From NCBI RefSeq assembly GCF_020969955.1, contig NZ_JAHDSX010000024.1, positions 3,084 to 35,083 of the forward strand: 32,000 bases of DNA, written 5' to 3'. The notes below the pieces were generated by a model, which ran no database searches, was not told the origin of the DNA, and was given only the letters and a program-made list of their open reading frames with translations. Within the stretch, counting starts at the first letter, position 1. Each line of letters starts with the position of its first letter. Of the stretch, positions 25,567 to 31,686 are shown in pieces. Origin of the DNA: Allobaculum fili (lineage in GTDB: Bacteria; Bacillota_I; Bacilli_A; Erysipelotrichales; Erysipelotrichaceae). A program made the translations under genes and the position numbers.

Positions 25567-25653
25567 GCCCGCGTGGTGAAACTGGTAGACGCAGTGGACT
25601 CAAAATCCATCGACAGCGATGTCGTGCCGGTTCGAGTCCGGCCGTGGGCACCA
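25567..25653 (+). tRNA. tRNA-Leu (anticodon CAA), type II with long variable arm, encoded CCA
   Basis: Acceptor GCCCGCG/CGTGGGC (one G-T pair), anticodon stem GTGGA/TCCAT with loop CTCAAAA, variable arm CGACAGCGATGTCG, T-arm GCCGGTTCGAGTCCGGC, discriminator A plus CCA. Confidence 0.95.
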
Positions 25654-25702: not shown

Positions 25703-25737
25703 AACGCGCAGATCCATACGGAAATCTGCGCGTTTTG
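25703..25737. terminator. Second, bidirectional hairpin terminator (serves the minus-strand nuclease gene)
   Basis: AACGCGCAGAT-10 nt-ATCTGCGCGTT. T-rich tracts follow on both strands (TTTTGTT on plus; TTATTTCGTTT on minus). Confidence 0.7.
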
Positions 25738-25764: not shown

Positions 25765-25794
25765 CCGCTCACTTAATCGCCGCTCACTCAATCG
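25765..25794. repeat. Tandem 15-bp duplication spanning the stop codon of the nuclease gene
   Basis: ccgctcacttaatcg (25765-25779) and ccgctcactcaatcg (25780-25794), 14/15 identical. On the coding strand this gives GAT TGA ... GAT TAA, two in-frame stops 5 codons apart. Confidence 0.85.
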
Positions 25795-28025
25795 GATAAA
25801 TCCGAATGAACTGCGTCGTTTAGAGGTTCTTCGTTTTTTTGCGCTGTATTTTCGTCGATCCCGTTTTCCGGCTCCAGTCCGGAAAAATCGACAGAGCGAT
25901 CGACCGGCTCCTCGACCGGATTATCCTGTGCCGGATCCGAATCGAGCGAAGATGGGGTCATAGGCGGGAACGCTTCCTGATCTTCCGTGGCCTCCATCGT
26001 TTCGAAGTCTTCCTCAAACGGATCTTCGGGGTCAGCCTCATCGGGATCAAACAAAGACGCCTGCGAGAGTAGTGCCAGCGAGGCCAGCGGCGATTGCGAA
26101 TCCAGATTGGCGGGAAGCAGACTGTCGCTGTCCGAAACATTTAGCGGCCGCTCGTAAATCGCTCGGGCCTTTTCGATCTGATTGGTAAAGAGACGCTGCA
26201 AAGCTTCAAACTGATCGGCCTGCCGGGTTCCCGGATATTCGTAAAGCGAAATGATTTCGACCTGCGGAAAGATCGACTCCGAATCGCGGACCAGATCGTA
26301 AATCGAGCGGGCGATGCGCAGACGAGTCTGTACTTCCGGATTTCGTCCATTGAATACGTAAAGACCGGTAATCTGATCGTCCGGATGAATCGGCGAAATG
26401 GAAAACAGATACTTGAAGATCAGCGGGAAAATTTTCTGCTTTTTGACATCGTGCGACGTGGAGTACTTGGCATCGCCGAGAATGTAGCGGGCGCCTTTCC
26501 ACTTTGGACTTTCAATGCGGAATACGTAGTCCGGCGTGTAGTACGTTCCATAGGAAGATTCTTCACTGCCCTTGATCGGCATCGAAATCGATGTGGAGCG
26601 GCCAAGGCCGGTAATCGCGCGGTCTGGATGCTTGTGGTTGTAGATGACCGGCTGATAGTAAAGCGTGATTTTCAGATCGTCCTTCTGATAAATGTAGACG
26701 TTGTTGATCTCGGTGTTCTTATAAAACGTATCGCTTTCAAACGTGTAGTTGACCCGGTACGAACGGGTGCGCTGAAAGCCGCTGCTTTCGAAAAACTCGC
26801 CCAGCTTCGTCAGAACGTACACTTCATACATTTCCGTAATCTGCAAAAACGTTCGAACGAAGCGAAGATCGCCGACACTCACGTTTTTCCTCGCGAAGCA
26901 GCGGCTGATGCTTTCGTAAATCAGACGGTATGCGGGCAGCTGACGGAACGCCGGGGTCAGCGTCGGCGCTTTTTTCAGTTCAATGAGTCTGGCCGGAATG
27001 GCACGGGAATACACCTGATACAGATAACGGAACCCCGCGAGCAGATCCCGCAGTTCGTTTTCTGTCGAATCAAACGAGTTTTTCATGACTTCGTACAGGA
27101 AGGCCGCAGAGTTCTGCATGTTCGTGATCGTCTTGTCATGAAGAACCGACCGGGCAGGAATCAGCTTTTTCTCCCTGGCCAGTTCGGGAATCATGGCTTC
27201 AATATCGTCGCAGACACCCTTGAGAAACGAGAGAGTGACCTGATTTTCGTACACATCCGTCGTACTGAGCGTCTGATCGACGTGCGAGAGATCGGGAATA
27301 TATGTGTTCATTCCAATACGCAGACCGACGCGGGAATCGCGAACACGATGCAGGGCTTCTGGATGTCCCAGCAAATACCGCACGCTGGCCTGCATGGACT
27401 GGCTGCTGCCGTTCTGAGAGTGAAGCGCAGCTTTTCTTGGCCGCAGGCGAATGAGCCGCCAGGACCGTTCAAAAAGCGTCGCGGTCTGCTTGAGCTGACG
27501 GATCTTGTCTTCAAGCGAATAGTAGCCGGGCCCTTTAGATCCTTCCCGGGTATCGTAGTCTTCCCTGGTTCCGTAAAAGAGCATCGGATTGTGACGGGCA
27601 ATATAGGCGCCCATGGAATTGACGGAATAGTTTTCGTCCGTCAGCGGCGTGATGACTTCGATGTAGTCGGAGTAAAACATCTGAGCCGGTCCGCTGGCGT
27701 AAGTCACCCGGATGGTAAAGCGCGCAAAGCCAAAGGCATCGGCGAAAATCGATTTCGACCGGCCGCCGGGCGCGAAGTAGAGACGGTTGGTATTGGCGTA
27801 GTAGGTGGCACTGATCGGATAGTGGTTCAGCTGAACTTCCACATGCCGTATGTAGCCGGCACGCGGAACGCTGAGCTGCGCCGAATACGATCCCGTGGCA
27901 TACACCTGGGCTTTCTGCGCTTTTAACAAATAGGAGAGCGGCAGTACTTCATCGGCCGGATGCAGCGGAACTTCGATCAGTTCCGCCCGGTAGTCGTCAT
28001 AAAGCCGCAGTACGCTTTCGGACAT
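25788..28025 (-). CDS. McrC-like / DUF2357-like protein with C-terminal PD-(D/E)xK nuclease core and acidic low-complexity tail (745 aa)
   Basis: Start ATG 28025 shares one base with the upstream gene's stop (TGATG). Nuclease motifs: ITEMYEVYVLTKL (E398/E401), YYTPDYVFRI (D499), YILGDAKYS (D518-A-K520, DNA 26466-26474). The N-terminal 150 aa are beta-rich and the middle is helical. The last 118 aa or so are D/E/S/P-rich. The tracked ORF start (28097) lies inside the upstream gene. Confidence 0.8.
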   Translation of the reverse strand: MSESVLRLYDDYRAELIEVPLHPADEVLPLSYLLKAQKAQVYATGSYSAQLSVPRAGYIRHVEVQLNHYPISATYYANTNRLYFAPGGRSKSIFADAFGFARFTIRVTYASGPAQMFYSDYIEVITPLTDENYSVNSMGAYIARHNPMLFYGTREDYDTREGSKGPGYYSLEDKIRQLKQTATLFERSWRLIRLRPRKAALHSQNGSSQSMQASVRYLLGHPEALHRVRDSRVGLRIGMNTYIPDLSHVDQTLSTTDVYENQVTLSFLKGVCDDIEAMIPELAREKKLIPARSVLHDKTITNMQNSAAFLYEVMKNSFDSTENELRDLLAGFRYLYQVYSRAIPARLIELKKAPTLTPAFRQLPAYRLIYESISRCFARKNVSVGDLRFVRTFLQITEMYEVYVLTKLGEFFESSGFQRTRSYRVNYTFESDTFYKNTEINNVYIYQKDDLKITLYYQPVIYNHKHPDRAITGLGRSTSISMPIKGSEESSYGTYYTPDYVFRIESPKWKGARYILGDAKYSTSHDVKKQKIFPLIFKYLFSISPIHPDDQITGLYVFNGRNPEVQTRLRIARSIYDLVRDSESIFPQVEIISLYEYPGTRQADQFEALQRLFTNQIEKARAIYERPLNVSDSDSLLPANLDSQSPLASLALLSQASLFDPDEADPEDPFEEDFETMEATEDQEAFPPMTPSSLDSDPAQDNPVEEPVDRSVDFSGLEPENGIDENTAQKNEEPLNDAVHSDLSD

Positions 28026-30625
28026 CAGCTGAAGAACTGATAGAACTGCATGGAACCGTCTCCTTTTTCCATGATTTCCTTCAGTTTTCTGCCGCACTTA
28101 ATGAGTCCGCCTGTTTCGCAGACTTTTTTCATTTTTTCCAGAATGGTACGGAACTGGTGCGAAGACCCGTTGATTTTCGGAAGCAGACGCTGGAGTACGG
28201 CGTAGTCGAGCGCCATCGTGCCGGCATCACTATAGGCCTCGTCTTCATCGGGTACAAACCAGCGCAGAGCGGTCAGCACGTATTTGCGCAGCGCGCTTTC
28301 CGAACGGATGGAAACCGTAAGTCCGGCTTCCTTGAACAGAGCGGCCAGCGACTGATACACGTCTTCAAGCGCGCTTGGCAGCGTCTGGCTGTCTTCCTGC
28401 GGCAGGAACACTTCGTCAAGCTGTTCGTGCGTAATCAGCGAAGAGCGGAATTCGTCTTCCAGAAGCGGTCTGGCCGGCTTGAGCAGCAGACGCTTTTCCG
28501 GCATCGTAATGACCCAGGCACGGTCCAGCAGACGGCTGCTTAACGGTTCGGTCGTGTGGTCGGACTGAATGGCAGCCGCAAAATGCAGAGTCCTCGGAAT
28601 TTCAAACGTATACGTGTCGCCCAGCGCGATCGTACCGCGGATGGCGGCGTTTTCTTCCATGGACATGAAGTCGGCCCAGTAGTATTCCATGCTCGACAGG
28701 TTGGCATCGTCGAGAAGGACGAGCGCCGGGAGCGAATCCGAGCCGCTGTTTCCGCGGCTTTCCTGATTCAGAATGCTGAGCAGATCAAACAGACGCGGAT
28801 CCGCTTTTTCAAAGGAGCGGGTCAGCGAGTTGTAAAAGCCGATCAGATCGCGGCGGCTTGACCAGCCGCGTTCGACGCTGACGGAGACAAAACGGGAGCA
28901 GTACGGAAACTGCGGATGACTTTTTTCAAGTTCTGCCGGCTGATCGAGGTGAAGCGCCTGCGCCGTAACGCGGCAGATCGACGTTTTTCCAGAGCCTGGC
29001 TGACCAGTAAAGATAGTCAGGAAGCCCTGGGTCAGGCAGATGAGAATGTTCAGAATTTCATTGCGGGAATATTCCGGACGGCTTTTCTGCATCGTGAACA
29101 CCAGATAGTCCACGAGCTGTTCCTTCGAAAGGAAGGATCGCGGCATGGCCGCAATGGCGCGGGACGCCTGCTGGTAAATTTCCAGCCGTCTGGCATTTTC
29201 CAGACGGGCGGTATGTTCCATGAAGCGTTCGGAAATCATATCGTCAAATGAGATTTCCAGCGTTTTCTGGCTGGAGCGTTCGAGCAGTTCATCGAGTTTT
29301 CCCTGCAGGCCTTCCATCTGTACGTTGAGATCGGCAATGCTTTTTTCACGACGCGCAATTTCTTCCTGCAAGTAGGACGATCTTGCTTCCAGGTTGGCCA
29401 CATCCTTGCCGATATTGGCCTGCCGCAGCGCTTCCTGGAATTCTTCTTCGGCTTTGGCTTTCATGGACTTGAGCTGATCGAGCTCTTCCTGATAGCGTTC
29501 GAGCTGCTGCTTTGGCTGCAGGATTTCCAGCTCATCGACGGCTTTCTGGAGTTCTTCCTTCTGCGCCTTCAGTTCGCTGTTTTTCTGCTTGAGCTGGCTT
29601 GTAAACGTGACGTATTCCGAATACGCAGGGAGCGCTTCGACAAATTCCTCATTTTCGAGCAGCTCATGAACCATATCCATATAGTCAGGATCGTCCTTGC
29701 GGGCCTTGAACATTTCCGGAATGAGCGAGGAAAGTTCATTAAAAAGTTCGCCGTTTTTTGCGGACGATTCAAAGATCGCCTGAAGCCGCTTTACCCGCTC
29801 CGCAGCCAGTGCGGCCGGAATGTCCTTGCCGCTGATCAGCGAGTTCTGGTAACTGGCCAGCAGACTCGCAAACGCGGCGGGATCGACACCGATAGTTTTC
29901 GCCGTTTTTCCCTTGATGGATGCGGTAAAGTTTTCGATCAGTTCCTCATCGGAAATGGTGTCGGTCGGACACGGTTCGATGCCTTCGCCTTCGATGCGGA
30001 CATAGCCGCGCGTCACATCGATCTGTTCCAGCGTATGGATCCGATCCGCCAGAGAAGGCGAATACAGATAGCCGGAAATAATGGAGTTTTTCTGATCAAG
30101 CGAAGGATAGATCACCAGTTCATCGAGATCTTCGTCGTAACGGACCCGAAACGGACCGACGAGCGTATTTTCGATCGGACCTGGAATCATGACCCGCATA
30201 TCTTCGTTGACGTCGCGGGTATTCAAAATCACCGTTGAATCTTTACGCCAGTCCCCTTCTACGGCTTCCTGGGGCAGCGCATAGTACCAGCCCACATCTT
30301 CCATGCGAAGAATCGATCCGGAATACTGCTTGAACACATCGAGTTTCCAGGCGGAAGGATAGACGCTCCCATCGCTTTTCAAATTTGGAATGAGCTTATC
30401 GCTCTGAAAATCAATAATGACGTCGTCTCCGTCCTGAAACAGATCGTCTAAACGCATCGATGTCGAAGAGGAAAACAGATTCAGGTTGGGATACTGCGAT
30501 CCCGGAAGAATCTTCTCCACATCTTCATCGCTCAAACGAATAAATTTGTCTTTTTCATAAATGTACGTCGGATAAAAATTCACATAAAATCCGCTGGTTC
30601 GAATTTCTCCTACATAGCGCGGCAT
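28025..30625 (-). CDS. McrB-like AAA+ (AAA_5-type) P-loop NTPase with unknown N-terminal domain and long coiled coil (866 aa)
   Basis: Walker A GQPGSGKTS (aa 541-549, DNA 28982-29005). Walker B-like LVLLDDANLSS (aa 635-645), comparable to McrB hhhDEINRANLS. FAAAIQSDHTTEPLSSRLLDRAWVI is comparable to McrB GTMNTADRS...LRRRF. Heptad-rich, E/K/Q/L-rich segment at about aa 340-490. AAAGGAA upstream of ATG 30625. Confidence 0.8.
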   Translation of the reverse strand: MPRYVGEIRTSGFYVNFYPTYIYEKDKFIRLSDEDVEKILPGSQYPNLNLFSSSTSMRLDDLFQDGDDVIIDFQSDKLIPNLKSDGSVYPSAWKLDVFKQYSGSILRMEDVGWYYALPQEAVEGDWRKDSTVILNTRDVNEDMRVMIPGPIENTLVGPFRVRYDEDLDELVIYPSLDQKNSIISGYLYSPSLADRIHTLEQIDVTRGYVRIEGEGIEPCPTDTISDEELIENFTASIKGKTAKTIGVDPAAFASLLASYQNSLISGKDIPAALAAERVKRLQAIFESSAKNGELFNELSSLIPEMFKARKDDPDYMDMVHELLENEEFVEALPAYSEYVTFTSQLKQKNSELKAQKEELQKAVDELEILQPKQQLERYQEELDQLKSMKAKAEEEFQEALRQANIGKDVANLEARSSYLQEEIARREKSIADLNVQMEGLQGKLDELLERSSQKTLEISFDDMISERFMEHTARLENARRLEIYQQASRAIAAMPRSFLSKEQLVDYLVFTMQKSRPEYSRNEILNILICLTQGFLTIFTGQPGSGKTSICRVTAQALHLDQPAELEKSHPQFPYCSRFVSVSVERGWSSRRDLIGFYNSLTRSFEKADPRLFDLLSILNQESRGNSGSDSLPALVLLDDANLSSMEYYWADFMSMEENAAIRGTIALGDTYTFEIPRTLHFAAAIQSDHTTEPLSSRLLDRAWVITMPEKRLLLKPARPLLEDEFRSSLITHEQLDEVFLPQEDSQTLPSALEDVYQSLAALFKEAGLTVSIRSESALRKYVLTALRWFVPDEDEAYSDAGTMALDYAVLQRLLPKINGSSHQFRTILEKMKKVCETGGLIKCGRKLKEIMEKGDGSMQFYQFFS

Positions 30626-30912: not shown

Positions 30913-31686
30913 ATGCATTTTACATTTAAGGAAATCGAATACTACAAACCCGATGGAAAACCCGACATCTGTCTGGAATGCTTCAGCGTAATCGACCTGA
31001 ATGTCTATGAACTACTTGAATTCAGCCGCGACAAAAACAAGTGCTACTACTGGGCTTTGAAAAGTCAGATTACCGGCGATGTGAAAGCCTACATCACTTC
31101 GGTCTACTACATCGACGGCGAAAACAGCCTTACCGGAAAGCCGACGTTTAAAATCGTGCACGGTTTTGAATACGAAGACCCGCGCGAATATCACTGTCCG
31201 CGCTCGGTGCTCGACCGGCTGACGCCGACCACCGATCCGCGTGCCCTGCAATGGCGGCGCAAAGCGCAGTACGCGCTCAATCAGGCAGCCCTGCTCAATC
31301 AGAAATTTATCGAAGAACACCAGAAGGCGCAGCAGGAGCCGGATTTCTTGGTCCCTGCCCTGACTTCTTCTGTGACTGCGCTGATTGTTCAGGAAGAGAA
31401 GCTTCCCTTTTTGACCGAAGCAAAACCAGATAAGGTACACGATATGAAAAAAGAGGAAAACCAGACATACGCTTCAACTTCCCGTTCTCTTCTCAAAACC
31501 GACGCGGTGCTGCTTCCGCGCTCCCGTCATCAGACACCGAAACGCCGTCAGGTCCTTCTTGCGCCAAGACGTCTGAAAAAAGCAAAACGGCTGCCCAGAC
31601 GACCGAGCAAGGATCATCCTTCCTTTACTGCAGGCAAACCAATGCACTTTCAGGGCAATGTCCTGCTGCTGAATCTGAAATATTAA
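30913..31686 (+). CDS. Hypothetical protein; the N-terminal 130 aa or so resemble a phage/plasmid-associated domain with a CPxSxLDxLTPT...WR signature; basic low-complexity C-terminal half
   Basis: AGAGGAAAATGC precedes ATG 30913. ...YEDPREYHCPRSVLDRLTPTTDPRALQWRRKA... I recall this signature from the family named DUF6927, unverified. The C-terminal R/K/P-rich part may be non-native or frameshifted. Confidence 0.55.
   Translation: MHFTFKEIEYYKPDGKPDICLECFSVIDLNVYELLEFSRDKNKCYYWALKSQITGDVKAYITSVYYIDGENSLTGKPTFKIVHGFEYEDPREYHCPRSVLDRLTPTTDPRALQWRRKAQYALNQAALLNQKFIEEHQKAQQEPDFLVPALTSSVTALIVQEEKLPFLTEAKPDKVHDMKKEENQTYASTSRSLLKTDAVLLPRSRHQTPKRRQVLLAPRRLKKAKRLPRRPSKDHPSFTAGKPMHFQGNVLLLNLKY

Follow-up and report, generated by a model that had tools for sequence, protein, structure and literature searches.

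The 32,000-nucleotide stretch of Allobaculum fili DNA analysed here (contig NZ_JAHDSX010000024.1, positions 3,084 to 35,083; hereafter the window) carries a two-gene McrBC-like system, the first gene of which, cnuB/mcrB-like, encodes a protein of 866 amino acids (aa). We propose that residues 1-490 of this protein form a target-sensing arm that acts as a nucleic-acid reader in a system like the Type I-C CoCoNuTs, a reading to which we assign a probability of about 0.6; single-stranded or RNA ligands seem somewhat likelier. The nucleic-acid reader is favoured because the arm combines an OB fold, a PUA-like barrel and an unvarying set of Asn, Thr, Lys and aromatic residues. A first-pass annotation of the window had described the N-terminus as a candidate sensor module with no assignable motif. 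It is still plausible as a specificity or sensor module, but it does not lack an assignment, since an OB-fold barrel and a divergent PUA-like barrel can be told apart in it. The gene and the parts of its product were delimited as follows.

28025..30625, minus strand: cnuB/mcrB-like gene, 866 aa, from its open reading frame (ORF) and translation; stop codon at 28025-28027
30296..30625, minus strand: domain 1, aa 1-110, an OB-fold-like beta barrel
29951..30295, minus strand: domain 2, aa 111-225, a predicted divergent PUA-like (Lon-N/YTH/ASCH/EVE-like) beta barrel
29621..29950, minus strand: helical neck, aa 226-335
29156..29620, minus strand: coiled-coil-like stalk, aa 336-490, from a heptad score, weak hidden Markov model (HMM) matches and its kept length
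28028..29155, minus strand: McrB-like AAA+ (AAA_5-type) NTPase, aa 491-866, from motifs, hhalign and a profile search of the PDB

Folds of the N-terminal module

No Pfam, NCBIfam or PADLOC model covered aa 1-335. When aa 1-240 were searched with phmmer against 1.84 billion representative proteins, 70 clusters passed E <= 1e-3 and 17 of these also passed E <= 1e-10. Most of the matches were about 860 aa long and had the layout of the window protein, and the short ones are most likely fragments of metagenomic contigs. The OB/PUA-like module was seen in no other architecture among these matches. In addition, all 48 full-length family members that were aligned had the C-terminal NTPase. Given a 51-sequence alignment, AlphaFold2 folded aa 1-335 with a mean pLDDT (the score of the predicted local distance difference test) of 87.8 and a predicted template modelling score of 0.78, and residues 1-225 scored above 90. 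The model shows 23 beta strands, in agreement with the beta-rich N-terminus of the first-pass annotation; the four peptides quoted there were all found at their residues, and its conversions to window positions (aa 1-240 to 29906-30625; aa 340-490 to 29156-29608) were correct. Disorder of the N-terminal region, which the annotation had considered, is ruled out because residues 1-225 fold at a pLDDT above 90.

Foldseek found nothing in the PDB at E <= 1e-3 with either model (aa 1-335 or domain 2 alone), but weak neighbours of the OB and PUA-like types were obtained. A profile built from the full-length alignment was also compared with PDB sequences and was set aside, as it returned coiled-coil and P-loop noise only.

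The top, weak rows for the aa 1-335 model were an editosome OB protein, LysRS, HIN domains, exosome cap subunits and RNase II. The structural neighbours of domain 1 were RPA70, bacterial and mitochondrial SSB, PriB and exosome Csl4, together with the anticodon-binding domain of AspRS and the OB folds of CST and BRCA2; these neighbours are binders of single-stranded nucleic acid. A shape search of the ESM Atlas placed the protein's own family first, followed by the Csl4 and ComEC DUF4131 OB clusters.

Domain 2 folded well on its own (aa 108-226, pLDDT 93.4). Judged by entry title, about half of its 44 structural neighbours are PUA-like superfamily members, as are nearly all of the 13 best. These members include YTH, ASCH (1wmm, 5guq, 6kir) and EVE-type (2gbs, 2ar1) domains, the RsmE PUA domain and cereblon, and the modification-dependent nuclease VcaM4I is among them as well. 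Foldseek's own candidates for domain 2 yielded only the Lon-like domains of cereblon. With the protein's own Atlas model, matches were obtained to C-terminal PUA clusters of TruB and, at a TM score of 0.48, to a canonical AAA_5+McrB_lid cluster in its N-terminal part. A feature-based Atlas search with domain 2 gave no usable match. On these models, domain 2 is probably a divergent PUA-like barrel, with scores too low to part YTH-like from Lon-N-like. Like the PUA-like readers (YTH, EVE, ASCH, Lon-N and the RsmE/TruB PUA domains) it is a small barrel, of about 115 aa, whereas the signature G157-P158-(Y/F)159 plus D222 is specific to the family of the window protein.

The sensing arm diverges faster than the ATPase, with about 24% identity to the query against about 40%. 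Within it, however, certain Asn, Thr, Lys and aromatic positions are held constant. The conserved residues of surface type are N16, N47, N49, N81, T91, Y/W93, K94, G157-P158 and D222, and an invariant pair, D222 and R277, lies at the junction of domain 2 and the neck. Constant positions of this kind in a fast-diverging arm are easier to reconcile with a ligand that does not vary than with a phage protein that changes quickly.

Stalk, NTPase and nuclease partner

The stretch behind the neck had been described as heptad-like and rich in E, K, Q and L, and a crude heptad score agreed with this description. Aa 336-490 scored 0.667, higher than every one of 300 shuffles (0.485 +/- 0.046), and E, K, Q, L, R, A and D make up 70-80% of the segment. 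The stalk gave weak matches to coiled-coil parts of the SMC, Rad50, JetC and LmuB models. Stalks of the family stay close to 168 aa in length (mostly 153-184) and share just 11-32% identity with the query; a length kept despite such low identity fits a spacer or ruler. Fourier analysis of its hydrophobic periodicity was uninformative, and complex prediction with two stalk copies (aa 330-500, 46-row alignment) scored 0.00, which speaks neither for nor against self-association. The PADLOC model PDC-M26A matched aa 339-666 (E 1.7e-22); this candidate system thus resembles the window protein in the coiled coil and the Walker A/B part, not in the N-terminal module. One relative, P0059 (970 aa), keeps the OB fold, the PUA-like barrel, the neck and the NTPase, with only about 34 aa in the place of the usual stalk of some 168 aa. 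This natural coiled-coil-less variant is reminiscent of the Type I-B layout.

The C-terminal part is an McrB homologue, as the annotation had held. The motifs of the window protein are GQPGSGKT (Walker A), LLDDAN (Walker B) and IQSDHTTE (sensor); across the family, the consensus Walker B reads ILLDEANLS and the consensus sensor ATINNDHTTE, an NxD motif. By hhalign, the 51-sequence ATPase profile matched E. coli McrB with a probability of 91.6% (E 8e-7). The 231 aligned columns reach from Walker A through the lid, and the N-N-D of the family aligned at N-T-A-D of E. coli McrB. Pfam AAA_5 was matched by 8 of the 48 members; the window protein alone gave P-loop matches in Pfam, all of them below threshold. 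In a profile search of the PDB, the best matches of the NTPase were midasin AAA_5 modules (E 1e-8). The distance from Walker B to the sensor is about 45 aa, with no helical insert.

The second gene follows directly.

25788..28025, minus strand: cnuC/mcrC-like gene, 745 aa from the ATG at 28025, set by the junction sequence
26346..26834, minus strand: PD-(D/E)xK nuclease core, aa 398-560 of the 745-aa form, from a PF04411 match

The stop codon of cnuB and the ATG of cnuC at 28025 overlap as TGATG, which suggests translational coupling of the pair. The ORF listed for the partner is 769 aa long and begins at a GTG within the upstream gene (junction region, window 28023-28097); this form is probably 24 codons too long, because the ATG at 28025 overlaps the cnuB stop. 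The same ATG agrees with the start of the partner in relatives. A purine-rich stretch, GGAAAGGAA, precedes the ATG of the cnuB/mcrB-like gene.

The linkage of the two genes is strict. Of 80 related loci, 78 have a partner homologue as the next gene downstream, in the same orientation, and the contigs of the other 2 end too early. Matches to DUF2357 were found in 23 of 32 partner homologues and to PDDEXK_7 in 12, while the window's own partner matches PDDEXK_7 only (E 1e-4; 22.7 bits at a cut-off of 22.1). These matches, and the invariance of D499, D518 and K520 across the 32 homologues, bear out the earlier call of a PD-(D/E)xK partner. In addition, hhalign aligned its nuclease part with E. 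coli McrC at 68% (E 5e-5). The partner matched no PADLOC model, and CxxC motifs are absent from its sequence. Most relatives have a partner of about 600-615 aa, and the Erysipelotrichaceae clade one of 650-830 aa; the extra length in the window is a D/E/S/P-rich tail of about 120 aa (window 25788-26150).

Alternatively, the N-terminal module might serve in assembly, autoinhibition or localisation, with target choice made by the McrC-like protein, which has an N-terminal beta-rich domain of its own. The invariant D222 and R277 could then be structural, and the arm tolerates rearrangement, since P0059 keeps the module without the long coiled coil. Conservation of so many surface-type polar residues in domain 1 (N16, N47, N49, N81, T91 and K94) argues against a role of this kind. 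The N-terminal domain of McrB sets specificity, and to our knowledge it is the specificity element in every McrB that has been studied. We therefore regard a non-sensing module as very improbable and retain the target-sensing arm.

Relation to CoCoNuT and McrBC systems

Bell, Sahakyan, Makarova, Wolf and Koonin (eLife 2024; PMC11090510; PMC10542128) proposed the CoCoNuT systems computationally, and Types I-A and I-C are two-gene systems in their scheme (PMC11090510). Type I CnuB begins with OB folds that are CSD-like, to which Types I-B and I-C often add a YTH-like domain between the OB fold and the coiled coil (PMC11090510). In the part of the supplement covered here, the heading for Type I-C reads 'CSD-YTH-CoCo-McrB (CnuB)' and 'IG-McrC_N-PD-DxK (CnuC)' (PMC11090510). 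The NxD motif, in place of NxxD, defines the CoCoNuT-containing clade of McrB and is called strictly conserved (PMC11090510). Type I-A is marked by a helical insert between Walker B and NxD and by a CnuC with inserted coiled coils, a CSD and a zinc ribbon (PMC11090510). The domain calls of Bell et al. use the same PDB entries as ours, with similarly weak scores (PMC11090510).

The comparison with CoCoNuTs drawn in the first-pass annotation was apt in general. Its suggestion that an SmpB-like OB fold can stand at the McrB N-terminus was mistaken, as Bell et al. place the SmpB-like domain in the CnuH helicase of Types II and III (PMC11090510). An SmpB-like fold at the N-terminus of the window's CnuB was discarded, since no SmpB chain occurred among the structural neighbours. 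The N-terminal module very probably belongs to a class already described computationally and would then be neither new in kind nor unassignable.

The window system and Type I-C share the two-gene operon and the order of the parts in CnuB, namely an OB fold ('CSD') at the N-terminus, then a divergent PUA-like barrel as the candidate YTH-like domain, the coiled coil, and finally an McrB-type NTPase whose sensor has NxD spacing, with the motif itself in most of the family. The N-terminal OB fold of Type I-C CnuB was found as domain 1, and the long coiled coil that precedes the NTPase in CoCoNuTs was found by heptad score, HMM matches and kept length. CnuC likewise has DUF2357 and PD-(D/E)xK without a zinc ribbon, behind a putative N-terminal beta domain. 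The helical insert between Walker B and NxD is absent from both, and the best PDB neighbours are the same (5c0w chain I and 4u8t), with similarly weak scores. None of the Type I-A traits (the helical insert; the coiled coils, CSD and zinc ribbon of CnuC) is present in the window system. Within the Type I-A sequence covered, the CnuB segment IPVKPNWTSSEDLLGYYNPL is nearer to VSVERGWTSKRDFIGYYNPL of the window family than the E. coli McrB equivalent is, and a WTSxxD(L/F)(L/I)GYYNPL segment is common to the two.

There are also differences from Type I-C. First, the window protein and seven close relatives mostly carry Q-S-D instead of N-x-D, with D-D instead of D-E in Walker B. In addition, domain 1 resembles generic OB folds (RPA, SSB, Csl4) and not cold-shock domains specifically. 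Finally, the window protein has an extra helical neck of about 110 aa that is unnamed in the published scheme. Judged by layout and not by a tree, the window family is very probably part of, or sister to, the Type I-C set.

The likeness to canonical McrBC (E. coli EcoKMcrBC; Thermococcus gammatolerans, PMC7680126) is found in the AAA_5/McrB-type NTPase, in an N-terminal specificity domain and in translational coupling to a PD-(D/E)xK McrC partner, the hhalign values being 91.6% for McrB and 68% for McrC. In contrast to canonical McrBC, the sensor of the window family is of the NxD and not the NxxD type, and a stalk of about 155 aa plus a neck of about 110 aa stand between reader and motor. The reader is an OB and PUA-like tandem and not a DUF3578-type or single YTH-like domain, and the window partner has DUF2357 and an extra N-terminal domain.

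Given this homology, the tandem might be a conventional type IV reader that recognises modified bases in phage double-stranded DNA for cleavage by the McrC-like nuclease. E. coli McrBC and the YTH-like N-terminal domain of T. gammatolerans McrB both read modified double-stranded DNA. The homology of both proteins to McrB and McrC, the intact PD-(D/E)xK motif, the presence of VcaM4I and of EVE and YTH readers among the PUA-like neighbours and the superposition of the N-terminal part of canonical McrB (AAA_5+McrB_lid) on domain 2 are consistent with such a reader, as is the specificity role of the McrB N-terminal domain noted above. However, the OB neighbours of domain 1 bind single-stranded nucleic acid, the surface of the module is acidic, and the coiled-coil stalk and NxD motif separate the family from canonical McrB. 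Furthermore, no methyltransferase or other conserved neighbour was found in 80 loci. A conventional type IV reader is therefore unlikely in our estimate, and a reader of the Type I-C kind is preferred.

Candidate ligands, distribution and significance

We infer a ligand class and a mode of coupling for the proposed nucleic-acid reader as follows. The C-terminal AAA+ domains would form an McrB-type hexamer that binds the McrC-like nuclease, by analogy with McrBC (PMC7680126). The length-conserved coiled coil would be a stalk that keeps the OB and PUA-like tandem off the ring, and the tandem would bind a conserved nucleic-acid feature, with single-stranded RNA or single-stranded DNA as the likeliest ligand and possibly a modified base in it. 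Ligand engagement would then pass via the neck and the stalk to NTP-driven activation of the nuclease.

Several observations weigh against this reading. First, all structural similarity scores for the N-terminal domains are weak. In the models, domain 2 appears similar to readers at the level of the fold, any YTH-type aromatic cage or EVE pocket in it being putative, and its best neighbours are the Lon N-terminal and cereblon domains, which bind proteins. In addition, acidity marks each of the three N-terminal domains family-wide (median net charges of -6, -7 and -8; isoelectric point of about 4.7), and K94, R277 and R280 are their only conserved basic residues. Such acidity is unusual for a binder of the nucleic-acid backbone; E. 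coli CspA is likewise acidic. When a profile of the N-terminal domains was run against 399 Bacilli genomes, only the window genome and one genome of the same genus were found. Two further matches, at E of about 3e-4, covered the helical neck only, and no sequence link to the CSD-YTH modules of Type I-B was found in these genomes. The placement beside Type I-C, moreover, is one of layout. Finally, the window protein departs from the NxD rule. Walker B D-E together with N-N-D or N-S-D was found in 43 of 51 members, whereas the window protein has Q-S-D with Walker B D-D, so that the NxD spacing fits and the Asn is replaced. In the 51-sequence alignment, Gln stands at the sensor-1 Asn, giving Q-S-D or Q-N-D, in 7 of 8 proteins of one clade (the window protein, P0004-P0006 and P0009-P0012), and the same 8 proteins have D-D, in one case D-N, in Walker B (window 28550-29005, aa 541-692). 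In this swap one side chain is longer by a methylene and the other is shorter. Since it is confined to one clade, it counts as one event and not as independent covariation. The Q-S-D/D-D variant could reflect a changed use of nucleotide or a slow, switch-like NTPase.

The acidity of the N-terminal module keeps a non-nucleic-acid sensor in consideration. The tandem might sense a protein, for example one of a phage or a damaged one of the host, in the manner of the substrate-binding Lon N-terminal domain, and read no nucleic acid. The acidic charge of all the N-terminal domains and their very few conserved basic residues would suit a protein sensor. On the other hand, the partner is a nuclease, and domain 1 looks like one of the OB folds that take single-stranded nucleic acid. 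Hosts that are far apart also keep one and the same polar and aromatic constellation, as would be expected more readily for a universal ligand than for phage proteins, which vary. We consider a protein sensor quite improbable. It is likewise doubtful, if less so, that the tandem is a new acidic sensor of protein or small molecule that gates an McrBC-type nuclease through a stalk of fixed length; if it were, the published 'RNA-targeting' reading of Type I-C would be wrong for the window family. The nucleic-acid reader thus remains the reading that we prefer.

The gene was found in at least 240 species genomes, mostly of gut Bacillota, with some in Sutterella, Comamonas, Alistipes and Mucispirillum. 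It was present in 1 of 80 other sampled genera of Erysipelotrichaceae, and the 2.58-Mb assembly that holds the window has a single copy. Mobile defence genes typically show such a patchy spread. Among named relatives, the closest is that of Allobaculum mucilyticum (53% identity). The clusters of ten relatives were all named 'hypothetical protein', none of the ten carries any of the four accessions named in Bell et al. (PMC11090510), and the motifs of the window family were not found in the rows of their supplement that were covered (PMC11090510). Some relatives (P0022, P0023, P0025, P0030 and about 16 others) are long forms, in which an extension of about 270 aa precedes the OB fold; their length is about 1,130 aa, and one reaches 1,430 aa. 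This extension had no Pfam match and may be a further sensor or effector domain.

One more element of the operon was located in the window.

25703..25734, minus strand: terminator-like hairpin 3' of the two-gene operon, with a 13-bp stem followed by a T-rich tail

A tRNA-Leu(CAA) gene (25567-25653) lies about 130 bp past the end of the operon on the opposite strand, and the two-gene module may be a small insertion beside this tRNA gene, without an integrase. Divergent from the module is a 257-aa ORF (30913-31686, plus strand) with no match in Pfam, NCBIfam or PADLOC. The remainder of the window is housekeeping in character (LepA, Fmt, HolA, MltG, AlaRS, RecD2, MnmA, a siroheme synthase fusion, an iron-chelate-type ABC importer and sulfite reductase). 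Conserved accessory genes were sought in the 80 loci and none was found; only synteny among close relatives was seen.

The first-pass annotation had called the N-terminal domain the key question of the system. This is still fair. For CoCoNuTs, which are themselves computational predictions, the main question is the target that CnuB's N-terminal arm recognises, and the ligand is as much a question in published work as it is for the window protein. Given that the 'CSD' and 'YTH-like' labels come from weak structural similarity and that the module is acidic, the RNA reader is an idea for testing and not an assumption. The unusual active site of the window protein's clade, with its Q-S-D sensor and D-D Walker B, deserves a separate look. 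The window family offers a compact two-gene version of the system with a confidently folding arm, and its natural variants include forms with no coiled coil and others that are extended at the N-terminus.

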